Origin: Leptospiraceae bacterium
Lineage (GTDB): Bacteria > Spirochaetota > Leptospiria > Leptospirales > Leptospiraceae
Assembly (NCBI GenBank): GCA_016720625.1
Contig: JADKKG010000114.1
Location: forward strand, 1 to 11,120
Length of the DNA stretch: 11,120 nucleotides
Direction: 5' to 3'
In this document: positions 555-11,120 of the stretch, piece by piece
How the letters are laid out: the number at the start of each line of letters is the position of its first letter
Numbering within the stretch: the first letter of the stretch is position 1
The notes under the pieces: generated by a model
What the model was told of the DNA's origin: nothing
What the model saw: the letters and a program-made list of their open reading frames with translations, nothing else
The model's database searches: none
Program-made: the position numbers and the translations under genes

Positions 555-1586
555 TTACTTTTCTTCTTCCTTGCGCTTAATCGGAAGTTTCCCCAGACTC
601 TCTCCACCTATGTTCAGAAATACACCTTCTAGTTTAGTTCCGGATAGAAGTCTTGAGAACACTTCTGCAACAGATTCTCCACCGAGGATTGCAAGGGGAG
701 CCATTGCTTCTGCAATCTTGACAAGTTGATCTTTATCGTTGAAAGACTGAAGTGCTGCGATGAAATCGGGGCTAATCGCCTTTGCCCGCTCAACCATGGA
801 TCTGACTTGCGTATCAAGCTCTTTTGCTGAGAGGTTGATATTTTGTTCCTTGAAGAATACTTCTTGATCTAATCTGGATTTGTCTCTTGTGAGTTGGACA
901 GAGTTGATCTTGTTCATCAAATCTTCTTTGTTCAACTGATTGTTTAATTTTAAGTCTTCGATAGATGCATTTGACTTTGCTCGGGTAGTTTCTAAATCTA
1001 GACGCTTTTCCAATTCTTCTTTTTCGTAACCGTAAATAGCTTTTTGGGTTGAATATTGAGATTCACTGGTTTCTTGTTTTACTTTCTCCATGAATTTTAA
1101 TATTTCTAGCTTTGACTTCTCGCGGGTAAGAGTTGTTGACTCCTGAATCAGAGTTTGTTGCGATTCTTGCATAAGCTTTGCAATGGCTGCATCTTTGATA
1201 AGAATGCCTGTAACTTCCACATCGTAGATTTTCATTTCATTTTCTGTAAAGTGGTAACCAGCATTATCTTCTCCGAGAATCGTCTTCTTTATAATGTTAA
1301 TTCCATTTGTGTAAAATTCTTCTACGCGGAAATTCTTTACAGCAGAGCGGATAACAGATCTAAATCTGTCTGTGAGAAATTTTACATAATTCTCTACATT
1401 AAACCATTTAGAAGAGTCATTTATAAAATTCAATCGGTAAGAAAGCTTAATCTGTATGCTTACAAAATCCTTTGACTCTACTTCAATTGTATCGGATACT
1501 TTGTTGTTAGCCACTCGAAGATATACATCTCGAATTAGGTTTTCATCTGTCTTTGGATTTCCTTTTGATAGAGAAAAAACTTGCAT
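555..1586 (-). CDS. Major vault protein (MVP) homolog, C-terminal part: shoulder (SPFH/band-7-like) domain, coiled-coil cap-helix and cap-ring region. Probably the downstream half of a frameshifted single mvp gene.
   Basis: ORF-track protein. 'VFSLSKGNPKTDENLIRDVYLRVANNKVSDTIEVESKDFVSIQIKLSYRLNF' aligns by eye with vertebrate MVP shoulder '[52 protein letters not shown]'. A long E/K/Q/L-rich predicted coiled coil follows (…KAIYGYEKEELEKRLDLETTRAK…). The C-terminal 'AISPDFIAALQSF…LAILGGESVAEVFSRLLSG' resembles the MVP cap-ring 'AIGPSTIRDLAVAG…LITDGSTPINLFNTAFG'. Confidence 0.75.
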   Translation of the reverse strand: MQVFSLSKGNPKTDENLIRDVYLRVANNKVSDTIEVESKDFVSIQIKLSYRLNFINDSSKWFNVENYVKFLTDRFRSVIRSAVKNFRVEEFYTNGINIIKKTILGEDNAGYHFTENEMKIYDVEVTGILIKDAAIAKLMQESQQTLIQESTTLTREKSKLEILKFMEKVKQETSESQYSTQKAIYGYEKEELEKRLDLETTRAKSNASIEDLKLNNQLNKEDLMNKINSVQLTRDKSRLDQEVFFKEQNINLSAKELDTQVRSMVERAKAISPDFIAALQSFNDKDQLVKIAEAMAPLAILGGESVAEVFSRLLSGTKLEGVFLNIGGESLGKLPIKRKEEEK

Positions 1587-1600
1587 ATCCTCGTCGAATT

Positions 1601-3046
1601 CTAAAAGGTAAGTGCTTGGTCAACTATGACTTTACGCTCTCCTGATTTGCCTACTACCATGATCGCATAACCAGCCCAAACTCCAAGAGAAACTGCGCCA
1701 TCGTATTTTGTATCAAGCGTGATATAGCGAGGAGGAGTATACTTATTTCTTCGTTGAAACGAATCGCTGGCTATTTGTTCTAATTCTTCTGCTTCTGGTT
1801 CTGATAGCAAGGAGTCAGCAACTGAAAATTCACGTTTGCTGGAAGCGGGAGAAGGTGTGGCTTGCGGTCTTGGAGGCAAAGTAGGCTTATCCGCTGGTAT
1901 TGCTTGCTTACGTAGTTCAGAATTAATTTCTATGGCACGATCATTTCCCGGAAACCAAAGACCTACTTGACGATGCTCCAAAATTCTACGAACAATTACT
2001 TCAAAGCGAGGATCAGGTAAGAACATATCGGGACCACGACGAAGTTTTACTTCACCAGTGAGACGGTTCATTACATAGCGCGCTTCTCCAAGTGGAATTG
2101 CTACAGCGTAGTGCACCTCGTTATCCTCATACTTGACGATTGCGTGTTCTTTACGTGGAAAATAAATCATTTGGTCTTTGCCAGTAAAGAAAAGCTCATC
2201 ACCTTCTTTGTATTGTGCCTCACCTTCTGTATAAGGAGCGATTACTTTGATGTAGATTCCTTTGATTTCACTTAGCTCAATCGCTCTATATTTGCGACTA
2301 CCATCTTTCTGGATAAATGTTTCCGTTGGTTCTGGAAATACAACCTCGGGACCTCGCACATAACGTTTATTACCATCTTCATCTAAGAGGATACAATATT
2401 CTAGCCGCTCAAGAGTAACTGCTTCGCGAATGTATTGGTTTCTAACATCTTTTACTACTTCAATACCAGTTGGGGGTATATAGAACGAAACCTCAGTTCC
2501 TTTAATGGTGATATGTTTCCCTAGTTTGAGTTTTGAAATATCAAATTCAGTCTGACCGGTGCTTGATTCACTTGTCTTGATGACCGCCTTATTCCAATTA
2601 TCCTTAGCGGCAGTCTCGTCATACACTCGCACAACCAAGTATTGATTCGAACGAAAATGATGTCCTTTTACTACATTTACCATTTGCCCCGACCAGAGCG
2701 GAAAAGAAATTGGTCCGGGGATATTCACTTTATGTCCCACATTGAGCTCGATGAGGCTATTCACTGTTCCAGTCTTTGGATTAGAATTGTCTTTCGCAGG
2801 ATTTTTTAGAACAAGATACCAACCTTCTGGAGATATTGCAAAGGTTTGAATGGCTCCTTCTAGAGAACATTTTTCAAAGCGCTTCGTTTTCTCATTGAAG
2901 ATGATTGGCTGATCGGTGTTGGAGAGACTTGCTTTATATGGACCAACGTAAATATTAATATTACCTTTTGTTTGGTCAGAAATAAATGCAAATTCATTTG
3001 GGGAGAGAATTAAATCCCTTTCGCGTTGTCTTTCTTCTACTGCCAT
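1601..3046 (-). CDS. Major vault protein (MVP) homolog, N-terminal part: tandem MVP (vault) repeat domains. Upstream half of the split mvp gene.
   Basis: ORF-track protein. The N-terminus 'ILSPNEFAFISDQTKGNINIYVGPYK' resembles MVP '[28 protein letters not shown]'. It has repeated ~55-aa units with the MVP-repeat signature (G-x-x-Y/F-I/F-P … E-V/I-V), e.g. 'GTEVSFYIPPTGIEVVKDV…', 'GDELFFTGKDQMIYFPRKEHAIVKY…' and 'RRGPDMFLPDPRFEVIVRRIL…'. AGGAG lies 7 nt upstream of the ATG at 3046. Confidence 0.75.
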   Translation of the reverse strand: MAVEERQRERDLILSPNEFAFISDQTKGNINIYVGPYKASLSNTDQPIIFNEKTKRFEKCSLEGAIQTFAISPEGWYLVLKNPAKDNSNPKTGTVNSLIELNVGHKVNIPGPISFPLWSGQMVNVVKGHHFRSNQYLVVRVYDETAAKDNWNKAVIKTSESSTGQTEFDISKLKLGKHITIKGTEVSFYIPPTGIEVVKDVRNQYIREAVTLERLEYCILLDEDGNKRYVRGPEVVFPEPTETFIQKDGSRKYRAIELSEIKGIYIKVIAPYTEGEAQYKEGDELFFTGKDQMIYFPRKEHAIVKYEDNEVHYAVAIPLGEARYVMNRLTGEVKLRRGPDMFLPDPRFEVIVRRILEHRQVGLWFPGNDRAIEINSELRKQAIPADKPTLPPRPQATPSPASSKREFSVADSLLSEPEAEELEQIASDSFQRRNKYTPPRYITLDTKYDGAVSLGVWAGYAIMVVGKSGERKVIVDQALTF

Positions 3047-3142: not shown

Positions 3143-3502
3143 CTACTCTAATTGTTTTAGCAGGTCAATCATTTCAGCATTTTTAAATGGTTTTACCATC
3201 CAGGCAGATGCTCCTGCGTCTTCTCCTTTTTTACGAATCTCAGCACTAGACTCGGTGGTCAGAATTACAATCTTCATTGATTTGCCATTGGGATGTTTTA
3301 AAACTAGTGGGACAAGTTCGATTCCAGTTTTTCCAGGCATATTTACGTCGAATATTCCAAAATCGAATTTTCCTTCTTCAATTTTTTTTAGCGCCTCATC
3401 GGCATTAGACGCTCTGACTACATCATAATCTTCGAGGCTTAGGGCAGTCTCAATTATATTCAAAACCATTGGAGAATCATCAACTATAAGAACTTTTTTC
3501 AT
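3143..3502 (-). CDS. cheY: CheY-like single-domain response regulator (receiver domain only), terminal gene of the che operon.
   Basis: 119 aa. It has the canonical receiver residues: 'LIVDDS' acidic pair, phospho-acceptor Asp in 'FDVNMPG', 'ILTT' Thr and 'VKP' Lys. AGGAAG RBS lies 4-5 nt upstream of the ATG. Confidence 0.9.
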   Translation of the reverse strand: MKKVLIVDDSPMVLNIIETALSLEDYDVVRASNADEALKKIEEGKFDFGIFDVNMPGKTGIELVPLVLKHPNGKSMKIVILTTESSAEIRKKGEDAGASAWMVKPFKNAEMIDLLKQLE

Positions 3503-3520
3503 AATACTTCCTTGCCTTTT

Positions 3521-4768
3521 TTATAAAATTGGAAATCGAACCCAAACGCATACATCTTTCATATTGTTTTCTCGTCTCATATTATTGTCTGTTGTATAAA
3601 ACGAAATACTCCCTTTGTGTAAATCAATAATTTTATTTACAACTGTCAAACCCAGACCAAATCGAAATGTTTCCTGCATGAATCTATCATCTACAACATT
3701 AGTCAATCGAAAAAATGGTTCAAAGATTTTATGCGCATTACTCTCCGTTATCCCCACTGTTCCGTCTGAATTCTTGTAGGCGGGATTCAGGATTCTGATT
3801 CCAATATCTGATTTATCATGGGAAAAGAGAATATAGATTGTATCCCCATCTTCCGAGTATTTAATTGCATTTGTTAATAATTCATCAAAGACTAGCTTCA
3901 AATTTTCTGGGCTGGCAGTAATTGATCTTCCGGCTAGGTCTCTTGGAAAATCACCCATAACTATCTTCTGATTTTTAATTCCAGCAACTGGTTTCATACC
4001 TTTTACCATTTCGGTTAATGCAGCATAGAAATCTTTCAGGGTTAATTTCCCTATATAAAAATCCTTTTCCGCTAATATGGCTTGTGTTTTAGTTAAACTA
4101 TCACTTAGTTTTAGAATTTCGTCGTAGTTGTCTTTTAATAGGTGATAAATTTTTTCATGAACTAAGTAAACTTTTTTCTCTTCATCTAATTTAGCTTTTG
4201 AAAATAAAATACTCAGTGTGCTAATAAGTGATCCGAGACCACTTCCATGGAAGAAGCTAATATTGATTTGGTGTATTAATTCATTTGCAAGAGATTCGAC
4301 TTTTCTAGTATCAAGTTCTTTTCTCCAATCAAATACTTTAATCATGGATTCGAAAACTTGTTTCTCGTTTGATTTAAAATCAGAAATCTTGGACATCACC
4401 TTTCCGTAGGTGATAGCCTTTGTTATCGCAAAATGAAAATTGAATTTATAAATTGGGTAGGAGATAATATCATACACATGATAGTTTTCCATCATTTGTA
4501 GAAACTTGTCTCCTTCCTCTCGATTGATTAATAGAATAACCAATTGAAATGGATATTCGGAAAGAATATTTCCAAGATTTTTTTGATTTTCGCTACTCGT
4601 GTCAAGAAAATCATAAACGAGTAGCCATGTGTCATCTGATTTAAGATAACTTGTGAGATTATCCATATTATCCGCTACGTTGAAAGCGTAAGTAAGATCA
4701 TCAACGTAGGTTTTCACCTGCTCTGTTATTTCTTTGTTTTGAGTATAGAGTAATATTTTATCAGACAT
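3521..4768 (-). CDS. Atypical cytoplasmic histidine-kinase-like protein: N-terminal receiver-like (probably pseudo-receiver) domain plus C-terminal HATPase_c (GHKL) catalytic domain. No canonical H-box is recognisable.
   Basis: 415 aa. The C-terminus has the N-box 'DELLTNAIKYS', a G2-like 'RFGLGLTVVNKIIDLHKGSIS' and an F-box-like 'FEPFFR', which is the classical HK ATP-binding domain. The N-terminal ~120 aa has a receiver-like beta/alpha pattern (KILLYT…WLLVYDFLD…QLVILL…DIISYP) but lacks the DD pair. No 'HExxxP' DHp motif is seen; the only candidate is the H in 'FFHGSGLGSLISTL'. Its start overlaps the cheB stop by 8 bp. Confidence 0.75.
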   Translation of the reverse strand: MSDKILLYTQNKEITEQVKTYVDDLTYAFNVADNMDNLTSYLKSDDTWLLVYDFLDTSSENQKNLGNILSEYPFQLVILLINREEGDKFLQMMENYHVYDIISYPIYKFNFHFAITKAITYGKVMSKISDFKSNEKQVFESMIKVFDWRKELDTRKVESLANELIHQINISFFHGSGLGSLISTLSILFSKAKLDEEKKVYLVHEKIYHLLKDNYDEILKLSDSLTKTQAILAEKDFYIGKLTLKDFYAALTEMVKGMKPVAGIKNQKIVMGDFPRDLAGRSITASPENLKLVFDELLTNAIKYSEDGDTIYILFSHDKSDIGIRILNPAYKNSDGTVGITESNAHKIFEPFFRLTNVVDDRFMQETFRFGLGLTVVNKIIDLHKGSISFYTTDNNMRRENNMKDVCVWVRFPIL

Positions 4769-5840
4769 ATTGGCCCGAGTAGTTTAAATAATTTTTTATC
4801 TTATTCACCATTTGAGAAAGGGGAAGTTGCTCTTCCACACCGCCGATTTCGTAAGCAACTTTCGGCATTCCGTATATGAGTGCCGACTGTTCACTTTCGC
4901 CAATGGTTCTCGATCCAGCTTCTCGCATTGCTAGTAACCCTTTTGCTCCGTCCATTCCCATGCCTGTCAAAATAACGCCAATTGTCTCACTGGCAAGTTT
5001 ATTATCAACAATGGAATGAAATAGAACATCCACAGATGGTCTATGTCCGTTAACTTTCTCGGCACGATTTAAGCCAACCGTGTGATTAATTCCATTTCTT
5101 TTATTTACCACTAAATGAAAGTCTCCCGGTGCAACGTAAATTCTTCCTGTCTGAATTATATCTTGATCTTTTGCTTCTCGCACATCAAGTCCGAAATCTT
5201 TAGAAACTCCCTTTGAAAAAGTAGCCGTAAATCCTGGCGGCATATGCTGAGTAATCACAATGCATGGAAAATCTCTAGGCACTGTAGATAGCACCTGACG
5301 TATTGCAGTCACTCCACCAGTTGATGCACCAATAGCCACAAGATTGTATTTACTCTTTCCATTTTTACCTGCCATAGGATTATTTATGAGTGGCAAGGAT
5401 TTATATTTTAATTGCTTGAGCCATCTATCAATATTGATCGTAGATGCTGTTTTAATCTTTTGAATTAATTCTGCTTGCGTTGATTCGAGAGTAATCGCTC
5501 CACCATCTGGCTTTGTGACAAAGTCAACTGCACCATATTGCATTGCTAAAATTGCTTTCTCTGAACCTTCCTCAGTTGTGCTACTGACCATGATCACAGG
5601 GATTGGATACTGAGGCATAAGCTTTCGCAAAAATTCCACTCCATCCATGCGAGGCATTTCTACATCTAGAGTTAAAACATCAGGCTCTTTTTCTGGAATC
5701 AGCTCGCTTGCTTCAAAAGGATTTGAAGCTTCTCCTACCACTTCAATACGCGGATCGGTCGTTATCATTTTTCGAATAACATTTCGAACGACTCTTTGGT
5801 CATCCACAATAAATACTTTAATTTTTTTGTTATTGTCCAT
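4761..5840 (-). CDS. cheB: Chemotaxis response regulator protein-glutamate methylesterase CheB (receiver domain plus methylesterase).
   Basis: 359 aa. N-terminal receiver ('VFIVDDQ', 'LTLDVEMPRMDG', 'TKP'). C-terminal methylesterase with the catalytic triad context 'IGASTGG' (Ser), 'QHMPPGFT' (His) and 'TGMGMDG' (Asp). Overlaps the cheA 3' end by 11 bp. Confidence 0.95.
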   Translation of the reverse strand: MDNNKKIKVFIVDDQRVVRNVIRKMITTDPRIEVVGEASNPFEASELIPEKEPDVLTLDVEMPRMDGVEFLRKLMPQYPIPVIMVSSTTEEGSEKAILAMQYGAVDFVTKPDGGAITLESTQAELIQKIKTASTINIDRWLKQLKYKSLPLINNPMAGKNGKSKYNLVAIGASTGGVTAIRQVLSTVPRDFPCIVITQHMPPGFTATFSKGVSKDFGLDVREAKDQDIIQTGRIYVAPGDFHLVVNKRNGINHTVGLNRAEKVNGHRPSVDVLFHSIVDNKLASETIGVILTGMGMDGAKGLLAMREAGSRTIGESEQSALIYGMPKVAYEIGGVEEQLPLSQMVNKIKNYLNYSGQYV

Positions 5841-7710
5841 GTGCTGCTTCGGATTCTTTGTTTTCCTTGTAGTAATTGTTAATAAAGAATCTAATGTCTA
5901 AAATCATTCCAATATTACCACTTCCCAGGATTGTGCAACCTGAAAAGCCCTTTGTTCCTTTTAAATAATCCGGAATTGGTTTAATTACAACCGATTGATT
6001 TCCTACAATTCCATCAAATACTAGGGCTAGCGAATTATTCTTATACTCCACAATAATTACATATAAAGAATTTTCGTAGTTAGAGTCCTTGTCACTTGAA
6101 TCGTGATTGAGTAATCTCTCTACGGAGACAACGGGTATTAGCTGCTCTCGGAAGCGAATTACTTTTTTGTCCTGATCGATATAGTCGATTTTCGATTCTG
6201 CCAAATTCAGTGTTTCTTTTACGTCTATTGTGGGGATAATATAGAATACCCCGTTGTAGATTACCACCATACCTTCAATGATAGCAATTGTAAGAGGTAG
6301 CTTTAGAATGAACGATGCTCCCTGGTCTTTTTTCGTCTTGATTTCAACATCGCCGTTGATCTTTGCTATATTTCTGCGAACTATATCAAGTCCTACTCCG
6401 CGTCCTGAAATATCAGTTACTCTATCACTAGTCGAGAATCCAGGTTGAAAAATAAAATCCCAAATTCTTTCGTCTTTTAGATTTTCGTCTTCTCCTTCTT
6501 TGATTAATCCGCGAGCCATTGCTTTTTTCAAAATTCTATCTCTATCTAAGCCTGCACCATCATCAGAAATAATAATCCATACTTCATTTCCTGAATGCAT
6601 TGCTTCAATCTTGATATGACCGGATTCTACTTTGCCTTTGGCTAATCTCTCTTTGCCTGTTTCCAATCCATGATCGATACAGTTGCGGATAATATGAACT
6701 AGTGGATCTGTTAATATTTCAAGGGCATTCTTATCAATTTCTGTTTCTTTTCCCGTAACTTGAAGACCCACTTTCTTTCCTGTTTTTTGTGCTAAGTCTC
6801 GAACAAGTCGTTCCATTTTATTAAACAAACCTTCGAGGGTAATCATCCTTAGCTGCAAGGATACTTCTTGTAGATTACGGACTACTTTACGTAAATAGGA
6901 AGATTGAATAGAAAAGTTCGGAAGATCTAGTTCTTTGATGTCTGGATTTTGAGTTACAAGAGATTCAGCTATCACTAGCTCACCAATCATGTCTAGTAGG
7001 TAATCTAATTTCTCTGTTTCGATTCGAATGTCTCTTTTTACTGTAGCTTGTCCATTCGAATTACCGTTATTTGCCTCTATAGTATTTTGAATCTTTTTTT
7101 CTAAAACAGGATTTTCTTGCGTGGCTCTCTCTGTAATATGTTTATCTAACTTATCAGATTCTGAATTTTCCGGAGTAGGGGCAGGTTCATTCGAAACTGG
7201 CAACTCCTTATTATCCTCTTCTGTTATTGGAGTATCAGAAAGCACAATTTTCTTTTTGAAGATTCCAAACCTAGGCTCTTCTTTCTTTGGCTCTGAAGAC
7301 TCTGCTTTTAGATTTTCTTTTATATAGAAGAGTCGGGGAATTAAAGTATCCGCCTTCTCCTTATACATTGTATCTGTTTTGTTTTCGTTGAGATGTGAAA
7401 AAATTTCATATAGAGTATCTCTTGCTTCCATGAAGAGCTGAATCATTTTTTGATCAAGAAGAGAATTGTCATTTCTTACAATCTCTAATAATGATTCTGC
7501 TGAATGCGATAGGTTTACTATCACATTGAAATTGAAAAATCCCGCATTTCCTTTGAGTGTATGGAAATAGCGGAATAATGAATTTACCTTATCTGCGTCA
7601 ACCGTTGACTCAGTTAAACTTTTTTCCAATTGGATCAGAATTGCTTCTGCTTTATCCAATATCTCTTGTGAATCAAGCACAAGGTCTGAAAGTTCATTTT
7701 CTCCAAGCAT
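5830..7710 (-). CDS. cheA: Chemotaxis histidine kinase CheA (P1-HPt, P3 dimerisation, P4 HATPase, P5 CheW-like). The P2 domain is apparently replaced by a low-complexity linker.
   Basis: 626 aa. HPt motif 'FHTLKGNAGFF' with the phospho-His at about residue 50. Dimerisation segment 'LDYLLDMIGELVIAESLV'. Kinase boxes 'HIIRNCIDHGLE', 'DDGAGLD' and 'GRGVGLDIV'. C-terminal CheW-like domain. Residues ~133-226 are an E/K/P/S/N-rich low-complexity stretch with no P2-like fold signature. Confidence 0.95.
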   Translation of the reverse strand: MLGENELSDLVLDSQEILDKAEAILIQLEKSLTESTVDADKVNSLFRYFHTLKGNAGFFNFNVIVNLSHSAESLLEIVRNDNSLLDQKMIQLFMEARDTLYEIFSHLNENKTDTMYKEKADTLIPRLFYIKENLKAESSEPKKEEPRFGIFKKKIVLSDTPITEEDNKELPVSNEPAPTPENSESDKLDKHITERATQENPVLEKKIQNTIEANNGNSNGQATVKRDIRIETEKLDYLLDMIGELVIAESLVTQNPDIKELDLPNFSIQSSYLRKVVRNLQEVSLQLRMITLEGLFNKMERLVRDLAQKTGKKVGLQVTGKETEIDKNALEILTDPLVHIIRNCIDHGLETGKERLAKGKVESGHIKIEAMHSGNEVWIIISDDGAGLDRDRILKKAMARGLIKEGEDENLKDERIWDFIFQPGFSTSDRVTDISGRGVGLDIVRRNIAKINGDVEIKTKKDQGASFILKLPLTIAIIEGMVVIYNGVFYIIPTIDVKETLNLAESKIDYIDQDKKVIRFREQLIPVVSVERLLNHDSSDKDSNYENSLYVIIVEYKNNSLALVFDGIVGNQSVVIKPIPDYLKGTKGFSGCTILGSGNIGMILDIRFFINNYYKENKESEAAHGQ

Positions 7711-7718
7711 TATAGAGC

Positions 7719-8207
7719 CTAAGCAATTCCTTTTACATCTTTCTCATGAATAAACTTATTCAGGTCGATCAATATTTTCAATGTATCGCCTGACTTTCCA
7801 ATGGAATCGACGAATCGTTCCATATTTGCTTCTTCAAATCCTGGTGAGGGCTCAATACAATCTTTTGGAATTTTTAAAACTTCTTTAACTCCATCGACGA
7901 TAAGCCCTGCACTTAGATTGTTAAAATTCATAATCAATATGCAGGTGAATTCGGTATAGTCTATCTTGGGTAAACCGAATCTTAGCCGCACATCAATTAC
8001 GGGAATAATCTTCCCTCGAAGGTTGATTACTCCCTTAACATATTCTGGTAAGTTTGGAACAAAAGTCACAGGTTGAAACGCAATGATTTCAATCAAGTAA
8101 CGAATCTCTATACCATACTCTCTTCCATCGATGAAAAAGATGATATAGAGATCCTCCATAGTATCTTCAGATTCTTCTAATTGTTCTTCTTCAAATGTCG
8201 TTACCAT
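7719..8207 (-). CDS. cheW: Chemotaxis coupling protein CheW.
   Basis: 162 aa. The CheW-like domain pattern is seen throughout (…IEIRYLIEIIAFQPVTFVPNLPEYVKGVINLRGKIIPVIDVRLRFG…LIVDGVKEVLKIP). It sits between the MCP and cheA with 12-bp and 8-bp gaps. Confidence 0.9.
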   Translation of the reverse strand: MVTTFEEEQLEESEDTMEDLYIIFFIDGREYGIEIRYLIEIIAFQPVTFVPNLPEYVKGVINLRGKIIPVIDVRLRFGLPKIDYTEFTCILIMNFNNLSAGLIVDGVKEVLKIPKDCIEPSPGFEEANMERFVDSIGKSGDTLKILIDLNKFIHEKDVKGIA

Positions 8208-8219
8208 ACACTTTACTCC

Positions 8220-11120
8220 TTACTTCAAATCAATTTTTTTCTTTCCGCCAGATTGTTGGTCTCTTCTTTTATCATCTTTTGATTTCTTAATTTGAAATCT
8301 TTTTACCATTGTTTGGAATGCTTCTGCTTGGCTAGACAACTCAAGACTAGCTGCTGAGCTTTCTTCTGCTGTAGCAGCAGCACTCATTGTCACCTGTGAA
8401 ATCTGATTGATACCAGTTGTAGTCTCTACGACCGACGAAGACTGCTCAATCGAAGCACTCGCGATGTCTTTCACTAGCTCTGTAACATCTACAACACCAG
8501 CTGTCATCTTATTCAATTCGTTTGCAGTTCTTCCCGCAATGTCCATACCAGAGCGAACTGTTTTAATCGAGCCTTCAATCATCTTAGTGGTTTCTTTCGC
8601 AGCATTCGCGCTACGAGAAGCGAGATTACGAACTTCTTCCGCCACCACGTTAAATCCTTTTCCATGTTGACCTGCACGGGCAGCTTCCACCGCAGCGTTT
8701 AATGCGAGTATATTTGTTTGGAATGCGATTGCATCAATTTCTTTGATAATCTTCGCAATGTTTTCGGAAGTTTCACTGATTTCTTCCATCGCTTTGAGCA
8801 TTCCCTTCATTTCGTTATTACTAGAAACTGCTTGGTCTTTCACGTTCATAGCTTGGTCACTTGCGTCCTTCGCATTCTTCGCGTTATCCTTAGCTTTGAG
8901 TTCGATTACTGCCAGCGTTGAAGTAATCTCTTCTACGCTACTAGCTTGTTCGTTTGATCCTTGCGAGAGAGATTGGCTGGAGTCAGCCACTTGTCTAGAG
9001 CTAATGAGGATTTGATCCGAAGCATTGATGATTTCACCAATGAGCTCATTGAAGGAATCAACGATGAGAGTGAGTGCTTTTTTAATCTCAGCGAAATCTC
9101 CCATAAAGTCTTTTGTTACTTCAACAGTTAAGTCACCTGCTGACATAGAAGAGAGGATACGCGAAATTTCCCCCACATAATCGTTTAACGTTACCAGACT
9201 TGTATTAAGAGCAGTCTTAATAGTAGCATGATCTCCCTTGTAATCACCGAGCATTCTAGCTTTTAAGTTTCCTTTAGACAATTCTAGCAACACTGCGGAA
9301 GCTTCTTGCACTGGAAGGATAACAGCGTCTAATGTGTTGTTTACCCCATCCACAATCTTACGGAAGTCACCTTGGTGTTTGGTCGCATCTGCACGAGTTG
9401 CAAGCTTACCATCAATAGCCGCTTTCGCAAGCATACCTGCATCAGCCACAAGTGCGTTTACGTTTTCAATACAACGATTAAGGTTGTTCTTTAGAGTGTT
9501 AAAATCCCCATTATAAGTATCCGTAATTTGATTTGGAATTGCACCGCGAGAAATTCTATCTACATAATCAGCAGCAACGTTAAGAGGACCAATCACCGAG
9601 TCTAATGTCTGATTAACTCCTTCCACAATCTTACGATAGTCGCCTTGGTGTTTAGTAGCATCAGCACGAGTTGCAAGCTTACCTTCGATAGCTGCTTTCG
9701 CAAGCATACCGGCATCAGCCACAAGAGCATTTACATTATCAATTGCGTTGTTTAAGTTGTTTTTAATTGTGTTAAAGTCTCCATTGTAAGTATCCGTAAT
9801 CTTAGTCGGAATAGCCCCGCGGGAAATTTTATCTACATAATCCGCGGCAACATTAAGAGGACCTATCACAGAGTCTAACGTCTGGTTAACCCCTTCTACA
9901 ATCTTACGATAATCGCCTTGGTGTTTAGTAGCATCAGCGCGAGTTGCAAGTTTACCTTCTACTGCTGCTTTCGCAAGCATACCGGCATCAGCCACAAGTG
10001 CGTTTACATTATCAATCGCATTGTTTAAGTTGTTCTTAAGAACGTTGAAATCACCGTTGTAAGTGTCAGTAATTTTAGCAGGAATAGCACCACGAGAGAT
10101 TTTATCTACGTAATCAGCAGCAACATTGAGAGGACCGATCACAGAGTCTAACGTCTGATTAACCCCTTCCACAATTTTACGATAGTCGCCTTGGTGTTTA
10201 GTTGCATCCGCACGTGTTGCGAGCTTACCTTCAATAGCTGCTTTCGCGAGCATACCGGCATCAGCCACAAGTGCGTTTACATTATCAATCGCATTGTTTA
10301 AGTTGTTCTTGATAACATTAAAGTCACCGTTATAAGTATCGCTGATCTTTTCAGGGATAGCACCACGAGAGATTTTATCAACATAATCAGCAGCAACGTT
10401 GAGAGGACCGATTACCGAGTCTAACGTCTGATTAACCCCTTCTACAATTCTACGATAGTCACCTTGGTGTTTAGTAGCATCAGCACGTGTTGCAAGCTTA
10501 CCTTCTACTGCTGCTTTCGCAAGCATACCGGCATCAGAGACGAGGTTGCCGATATTATTTTTCATTAGCATCAACCACTCATGAATTTGATCTTGTTCGG
10601 AAGCTTTGTTCATTGTCGCAGTCAAATCACCATTCGATATCTTATTCACATAGGCTACAAGATCAGTAAGCCACAAATGAACTCCGTTGACGGCATCTTT
10701 CATTTTTTGATGATCACCACGACATTCGATCTCCATTCTTTCGCGAAGATTTCCGCCTCTAATAAGTCTTAATACTCTATTTCCTTCCCCTATTGGAATT
10801 AGAATCGCATCGAGCATTGTGTTTACGCCAATTAAAACATCTGCATAGGCACCTTTGAATTGTTCTGGTTTTCCTCTTTCATCTAACATACCTGCTTTAG
10901 AGGCTTCTGTAAGACGAAGTAATTCTTTTTGTAAGGCTTGCAAGACTTGCATAACAGTGATTAAACTCTTTGAGAGTAAATCATTTTCAGAGCGAACATT
11001 TACTTTGACGGAGAGATTTCCTTCAGAAATGGCAACTGCTGCCTCTGCTTGTTGGTTAATCGCATTGATCGCCAAATTGAGGTTATTCTTTAGAGTGTTG
11101 AAATCGCCATTATACGTATC
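8220..11120 (-). CDS. mcp: Methyl-accepting chemotaxis protein with a very long tandem poly-HAMP array and a C-terminal MCP signalling domain (partial; the N-terminus lies beyond the window end).
   Basis: The ORF is open to the window edge. The track's 'M' at 11075 is a TTG inside a HAMP unit, not the real start. The signalling domain shows the hallmark '[37 protein letters not shown]'. Candidate methylation sites are 'SSVEEITST' and 'SIEQSSS'. Upstream are at least ~14 consecutive HAMP-like units (AS1-connector-AS2, e.g. '[18 protein letters not shown]…[19 protein letters not shown]' and '[25 protein letters not shown]'). No transmembrane segment falls in the in-window part. Confidence 0.95.
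9171..10535 (-). repeat. Tandem 273-bp (91-aa) direct repeats inside the MCP coding sequence. There are four near-identical protein copies plus one half-diverged copy, and each unit encodes two HAMP domains (di-HAMP module). More diverged HAMP units continue to the window end.
   Basis: The marker 'gaggacc…tctaa(t/c)gtctg(a/g)ttaac' recurs at 9584, 9857, 10130 and 10403, an exact 273-bp period. The proteins are ~95% identical ([10 protein letters not shown][IV][80 protein letters not shown]). DNA copies are only ~85-90% identical by eye, mostly at synonymous positions. Confidence 0.9.

Follow-up and report, generated by a model that had tools for sequence, protein, structure and literature searches.

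Eukaryotic major vault proteins (MVPs), known from rat, human and rabbit (PDB 4V60, 7PKZ and 9BW5), are laid out as repeats, shoulder and cap helix, and the protein described here is predicted to keep the same order of parts. Bacterial homologues of MVP have already been described (Daly et al. 2013, PMC3762200; Sokolskyi 2019, bioRxiv 10.1101/872010); the abstract of the latter names Myxococcales, Cytophagales and Oscillatoriales. The gene under study belongs to this same family. It lies in an 11,120-nt stretch of Leptospiraceae DNA, the whole of which is called the window below, and its reading frame is interrupted there. Which known arrangements does such an interruption resemble? Phase-variable contingency loci show a superficial likeness, namely a 1-nt length change that switches the reading frame. 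In programmed -1 frameshifting, as in dnaX and the IS3-family transposases, the downstream frame is likewise -1 to the upstream frame. The frameshifted genes of draft and metagenome-assembled genomes have the same single 1-nt indel, with no other lesion, intact orthologues and no decay.

The MVP-like gene and its surroundings

Two minus-strand ORFs make up the locus. The upstream ORF (3046..1601) encodes 481 aa with the C-terminal sequence ...ERKVIVDQALTF, ending VIVDQALTF before TAG 1603-1601, and a canonical AGGAG ribosome-binding site (3057-3053) lies 6 nt ahead of its ATG at 3046. The downstream ORF (1586..555) encodes 343 aa and begins MQVFSLSKGNPK.... It is in the -1 frame relative to the upstream ORF; this frame, taken one base upstream, reads ...PSTYLLEFDEDMQVFSLS... 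and leads into the downstream ORF, and the two frames overlap by 16 nt. The downstream frame is open only from 1619, being closed by TGA 1622-1620. The change of frame therefore falls within 1619-1604, or an indel lies at or near 1620-1622. An earlier, sequence-only reading of this DNA had noted both the VIVDQALTF ending and the continuation in the -1 frame, and had taken the two ORFs for one gene split by a 1-nt deletion. MVP homology that spans the junction and intact relatives bear this out, and we conclude that ORFs 3046..1601 and 1586..555 are, as read from their sequences, two parts of one bacterial MVP-like gene (555..3046, 830 aa once one G is restored).

The first Pfam, PDB and protein searches were made with an 830-aa fusion of the frames by T insertion, before the lesion was relocated. 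This translation matches MVP_shoulder (PF11978) at 84.7 bits over residues 514-617 (E 6e-24; cut-off 25) and also Band_7/SPFH, while the N-terminal repeat family Vault_3 scores 25.9 bits, under its cut-off of 28.8. MVP chains in the PDB, from rat, human and others, match at E 4e-10. The phmmer alignment to chain 7pkz_A is continuous over residues 458-594, across the junction, as the earlier claim of unbroken homology had it; residues 210-343 align to MVP repeats with an i-Evalue of 0.015. The protein search detected 6394 homologues at E<=1e-10 from many bacterial phyla, thousands of them ~820-830 aa long and some labelled in the source as 'major vault protein' or 'SPFH domain-containing protein'. 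Among the best 120 of the 6394, nearly all are single proteins of ~804-868 aa, and the closest, P0001, is an intact protein of 830 aa with 99% identity. The locus is thus predicted to be a single gene for an 830-aa bacterial MVP-like shell protein, in which beta-repeat domains at the N-terminus would be followed by an SPFH-like shoulder and a long cap helix.

The AlphaFold model made for P0001 is of low confidence overall (mean pLDDT 56), and we drew on it solely for the shoulder, the cap and local secondary structure. The model is confident at the shoulder (~520-617, pLDDT ~80-90), which is followed by a predicted C-terminal cap helix (620-756) with pLDDT ~80-90 over most of its length. In a Foldseek search against the PDB, MVP chains take every one of the top 12 places (E 2e-20 to 4e-17). 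The best alignments span ~800-950 columns of full MVP chains at E 2e-20 with a TM-score of only 0.17, which is low because the model is of low confidence. Residues 476/477 form a turn between predicted strands 471-476 and 478-482, in the repeat domain next to the shoulder, the last of the repeats. A low-confidence linker rich in Pro, Ser and Thr (residues ~385-441, window 1740-1890; PADKPTLPPRPQATPSPASS...) separates this domain from the repeat region, and the linker is the only part of the gene with in-frame indels among relatives (9 nt and 6 nt).

A chemosensory-type cluster (window 3143-11120, minus strand) lies directly upstream of the MVP-like gene in the same orientation. Its members are an MCP with seven HAMP_2 repeats that runs off the window, CheW, CheA, CheB, a 415-aa HATPase_c-only protein and a 119-aa receiver; a MASE1 sensor kinase (2-526) lies downstream of the MVP-like gene. 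Apart from L010 and L063, the close Leptospiraceae relatives have this arrangement too; it was not seen at more distant MVP loci. A general linkage of the cluster with MVP was accordingly rejected, being present only in the closest Leptospiraceae relatives. Self-similar DNA within the MCP gene (window 9300-10540), visible as off-diagonal BLAST matches, corresponds to tandem HAMP_2 repeats that are 82-88% identical between copies. In L002 (9471-9854), with equivalents in L003-L006, an extra ORF of 127-128 aa stands between the MVP gene and the sensor kinase; it has no Pfam match, and neither the window nor its closest relatives contain it.

The remainder of the window is in good order. No other frameshift was found in it, and all other genes are intact, with the MCP gene running off the window. 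Across ~7 kb aligned to L001, all 41 runs of at least 5 nt are conserved in length except for one intergenic T5/T6 run. This run (3517-3522), between the genes for the 415-aa HATPase protein and the receiver, is T6 in the window and T5 in L001, L007 and L008. The only other indels that separate the window from close relatives are an in-frame one of 3 nt in CheA (7078-7080) and short ones at 8243-8250, 9803/9807 and 10063/10065, around the CheW-MCP junction and among the HAMP repeats of the MCP gene; the CheW and MCP genes remain open and full-length despite them. A second frameshift in the MCP gene, suggested by a TTG 'start' at 11075, was considered and rejected, as the ORF remains open as far as the edge of the window and aligns in a single frame to the MCP of the relatives.

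Position of the missing base

Where does the gene lose its frame? The junction was read in 14 distinct related contigs whose DNA is 82-97.6% identical to the window: ~95-97.6% for L001, L007/L086 and L008/L077, ~94% for L078-L085, and ~82% for L002-L006 and L009-L012. At the position where the window reads GTTGACC (1624-1618, minus strand), all 14 contigs read GTTGGACC (Val-Gly-Pro). The relatives thus have GTT GGA CCx, and the window retains just one G, at 1621, the other G of the GG dinucleotide being gone (1620..1622; DNA alignments to L001-L012 and L077-L086). Aligned over the junction, the relatives read AAAGTCATAGTTGGACCGAGCACTTACCTTTTAGAATTC and the window AAAGTCATAGTT-GACCAAGCACTTACCTTTTAGAATTC. 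The missing G is the sole frame-breaking difference in the gene from the 14 contigs. In relatives the site falls within GGACC/GGTCC, a palindrome of the form GGWCC; nanopore deletions linked to methylation motifs are a known phenomenon. The lost base belongs to the codon of Gly476 (GTT GGA CCA), 15 nt upstream of a T4 run, and its deletion places TGA 1622-1620 in the true frame. With one G gone, translation would go through six wrong codons (DQALTF) and end at TAG 1603-1601. The 481-aa ORF therefore consists of 475 native residues and six out-of-frame ones (1621-1604), and residues 477-830, comprising the end of the last repeat, the shoulder, the cap helix and the C-terminus, follow in the true frame at 555..1619.

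Re-insertion of the G gives an 830-aa ORF (...KVIVGPSTYLLEFDEDMQVF... / ...ERKVIVGPSTYLLEFDEDMQVFSLS...) with 'VIVGPSTYLLEFDEDM' as its true junction. The restored protein differs from P0122, which is listed in 44 collection blocks and of which 24 carrying contigs were read, only by L131F; the common intact protein ends in exactly the 343 residues of the downstream product. All 121 family members that were aligned have Gly476 and Pro477, and rat MVP carries the same Gly-Pro ('VVFGPELV'). Thr479, Leu481, Leu482 (119/121), Glu483 and Asp485 are nearly invariant. The mechanical start of the downstream ORF, ATG 1586-1584, is the internal Met488, at a column that is Leu in 111 of the 121 members; the sequence-only reading was right to regard this ATG as internal.

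That reading had placed the deletion in the T4 homopolymer, as an indel that might act as a slipped-strand phase-variation switch. Arithmetically, one T added to the run does join the frames. The DNA alignments, however, place the missing base at G 1621, 15 nt upstream, and a fusion by an added T was rejected. The run itself had been assigned to 1604-1609, one base off: AAAAGG is 1603-1608 and the T run 1603..1606 (minus strand; plus strand 1601-1608, CTAAAAGG). In the true frame it forms the ordinary Leu-Leu codons CTT TTA, followed by Glu. The closest intact relatives read CCTTTTAG, identical to the window, and the more distant ones CTTATTAG, CTTGCTAG, CTTACTCG or CTTTTAGAG, again with the length unchanged. 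The junction reconstructed by T insertion, 'ALTFLEFDEDM', proved wrong, since DQALTF is out-of-frame read-through; the protein repaired in this way would carry DQALTF where GPSTYL stands at the invariant positions, with Asp-Gln in place of a Gly-Pro found in 121 of 121 members.

Known contingency tracts are far longer than four nucleotides. Tracts that slip at such loci typically have at least 7 nt; here the deletion hit GG, with T4 as the nearest run. No tract-length variation among relatives was found at the GG (14/14 contigs) or, in the closest ones, at the T run. With the deletion outside the T4 run, the idea of a phase-variation switch loses its basis, and we regard a T4/T5 indel at 1603-1606 as scarcely credible. 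The outcome is a corrected annotation, with one 830-aa MVP-like gene instead of two and the lesion at 1621 instead of in the T run, and the proposed site of phase variation or recoding is removed.

Translation across the break

Could the single-G sequence still yield a functional protein? One route would be a functionally split gene, in which an N-terminal repeat fragment and a C-terminal shoulder-and-cap fragment are made separately and co-assemble, the second by termination at TAG 1603-1601 and reinitiation at ATG 1586. The stop and the ATG are 14 nt apart with GAGGA in between, and bacteria are known to couple reinitiation to termination across gaps of this size. But the GAGGA (1588..1592, minus strand) stands 1 nt ahead of the ATG, too close for a Shine-Dalgarno element, and is part of Glu-Asp codons that vary synonymously among relatives (GAAGAT, GAAGAC, GAGGAC). 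No usable conserved start and ribosome-binding site of its own was found for the downstream piece, and Met488 is not kept in most homologues. The two products would together lack residues 476-487, including the invariant Gly476 and Pro477, Asp485 and the near-invariant Leu482; a split at this turn would cut one beta-domain between two of its strands, and a conserved strand would be lost. The sequence-only reading had allowed for orthologues that are two separately initiated genes, and the orthologous loci, once compared, turned out to be single ORFs: no relative is split here, and 73 of 76 other MVP loci give a single unbroken match, the other three being broken elsewhere or at a scaffold gap. 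We therefore consider a split gene, and the reinitiation route with it, very unlikely. Similarly little weight falls on a real single-G allele whose protein is made in two pieces (1-475 plus DQALTF, and from Met488), or which amounts to a natural knockout in a wastewater Leptospiraceae population.

Another route would be a programmed -1 ribosomal frameshift somewhere in 1619-1604, restoring a full-length protein, for which the -1 relation of the frames and their 16-nt overlap provide the geometry. The earlier judgement that this is unlikely, there being no canonical slippery heptamer, holds: none of the six codon-aligned heptamers in 1624-1601 (T GAC CAA, C CAA GCA, A GCA CTT, A CTT ACC, T ACC TTT and C TTT TAG) fits X XXY YYZ. 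If Phe-tRNA slipped from UUU to CUU, it would no longer pair at the first position. The 126 nt of RNA downstream of the junction fold no better than shuffled sequences (MFE -23.4 kcal/mol, z -1.45, a stability reached by 17 of 200 shuffles). Any shifted product would have Asp for the invariant Gly476, most shifts would also replace Pro477, and the relatives, with single-ORF orthologues, need no shift. Programmed frameshifting is thus more improbable still than a split gene. Promoter-like sites at the junction also occur at chance level only, and neither an RNA structure nor a promoter was retained as a feature of this site. With no heptamer, structure, ribosome-binding site or length variation, phase variation, -1 frameshifting and a split gene are each unsupported. 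What is left is a single gene with one base deleted at 1621 and nothing programmed about it, be the deletion real or artefactual, a reading to which we assign a probability of roughly 90%.

Age and origin of the deletion

Compared with L007/L086, the restored gene shows 55 synonymous and one non-synonymous codon changes (dS 0.108, dN 0.0005, Nei-Gojobori; whole-gene dN/dS ~0.005), and MVP is the most conserved gene in its neighbourhood. The part 3' of the break shows 16 synonymous codon differences and no non-synonymous one, where neutral drift along the window's half of the path would be expected to produce ~31 non-synonymous changes. None observed against ~31 expected means that the break covers less than ~10% of the private branch (a rough 95% bound), or none of it. 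Signs of an old, decaying pseudogene were sought in the gene, and neither a raised dN/dS nor a second indel or stop was found. From the preponderance of synonymous changes and the lack of any non-synonymous change downstream, we infer that the lesion either arose very recently or is an artefact.

A single amino-acid change, L131F (CTT -> TTT, 2654-2656), is private to the window. Codon 131 lies within the highly conserved motif G-H-H-L-R-S-N-Q-Y, in which this residue is Leu in 117 of 120 homologues, Ile in three and never Phe.

Is the deletion technical, or is it carried by the organism? A base-calling or consensus (assembly) indel error is in our judgement the most likely single cause, and a technical rather than a biological origin is about an even bet; the organism would then make the normal full-length protein. 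The artefact reading is supported by the missing G as the sole frame-breaking difference from 14 contigs, by a restored protein nearly identical to the common P0122 with Gly476/Pro477 invariant in the family, and by the combination of no decay with extreme purifying selection. Further support comes from the other broken MVP genes, two of the three of which look technical. In L063 (7391-7394; Leptospiraceae bacterium UBA2033) a two-base NN gap replaces ~59 nt, corresponding to residues 465-484, and gives an apparent frameshift. In L072 (7040-7050), a MAG copy, the frame is broken near residue 330 by a C-run miscount at CCCC, and the contig name suggests long-read data. The third, in L071 (6954-6978), is another MAG copy, broken near residue 330 at a GGCTC tandem duplication. 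That the L063 break affects the same residues as the window was considered as a sign of a hotspot and rejected; it is a scaffold gap, an assembly artefact, and the agreement a coincidence.

Several points argue against an artefact. The base was lost from a 2-nt run while longer runs are conserved, which is not the signature of homopolymer-driven platform error; the other genes in the 11 kb are intact and the assembly is otherwise clean; and L131F, at a near-invariant Leu, would fit an incipient relaxation of constraint. These same observations, a GG -> G loss outside long homopolymers in a coding window otherwise free of indels together with the private L131F, favour a real loss-of-function allele of very recent origin, which would be a nascent pseudogene or else a strain variant dominating the sampled population. 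The absence of decay would require only that the event was recent (<~10% of the private branch), and a low percentage of bacterial genes are frameshift pseudogenes. However, a null allele of the most conserved gene in its neighbourhood should be selected against, as the dN/dS suggests; the gene is intact in every related contig examined and carries no second lesion in the window, and the allele was not seen elsewhere. A scan of JGI metagenomes that accepted both alleles recovered only GG contigs, a genome-contig scan gave no match above 92% protein identity, and look-ups of the exact 481-aa, 343-aa and 415-aa products found no record. We regard a true null allele as a serious possibility that falls short of even odds; with the same reserve, the cell would make the 481-aa N-terminal fragment and have no functional vault-like shell protein. 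Everything beyond a consensus error and a real null allele is unlikely even when taken together.

The wider interest of the locus is confined to the fact that bacterial MVP homologues are functionally uncharacterised; the gene is strongly conserved here. If the null allele is real, the strain would be a natural knockout and a contrast for asking what role bacterial vault-like proteins play.

How does the locus compare with known systems? Relative to eukaryotic MVP, the protein is ~16-18% identical in Foldseek alignments, has the long linker at ~385-441 and comes from a bacterial host with Leptospiraceae MAG relatives. Relative to the described bacterial MVP homologues, the window copy differs in coming from Leptospiraceae and in being frameshifted as written. 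Phase-variable loci switch by tract length, whereas the base lost here belongs to a GG dinucleotide, the T run close by keeps its length of 4 nt, and the 14 contigs show no length polymorphism. Unlike dnaX and the IS3-family transposases, the locus has no slippery heptamer, no stimulatory structure and no two-frame arrangement conserved in relatives. Compared with the frameshifted genes of draft and metagenome-assembled genomes, it has no distinguishing feature, and the lesion belongs to that class: an ordinary frameshift in an already described family, with no new mechanism.
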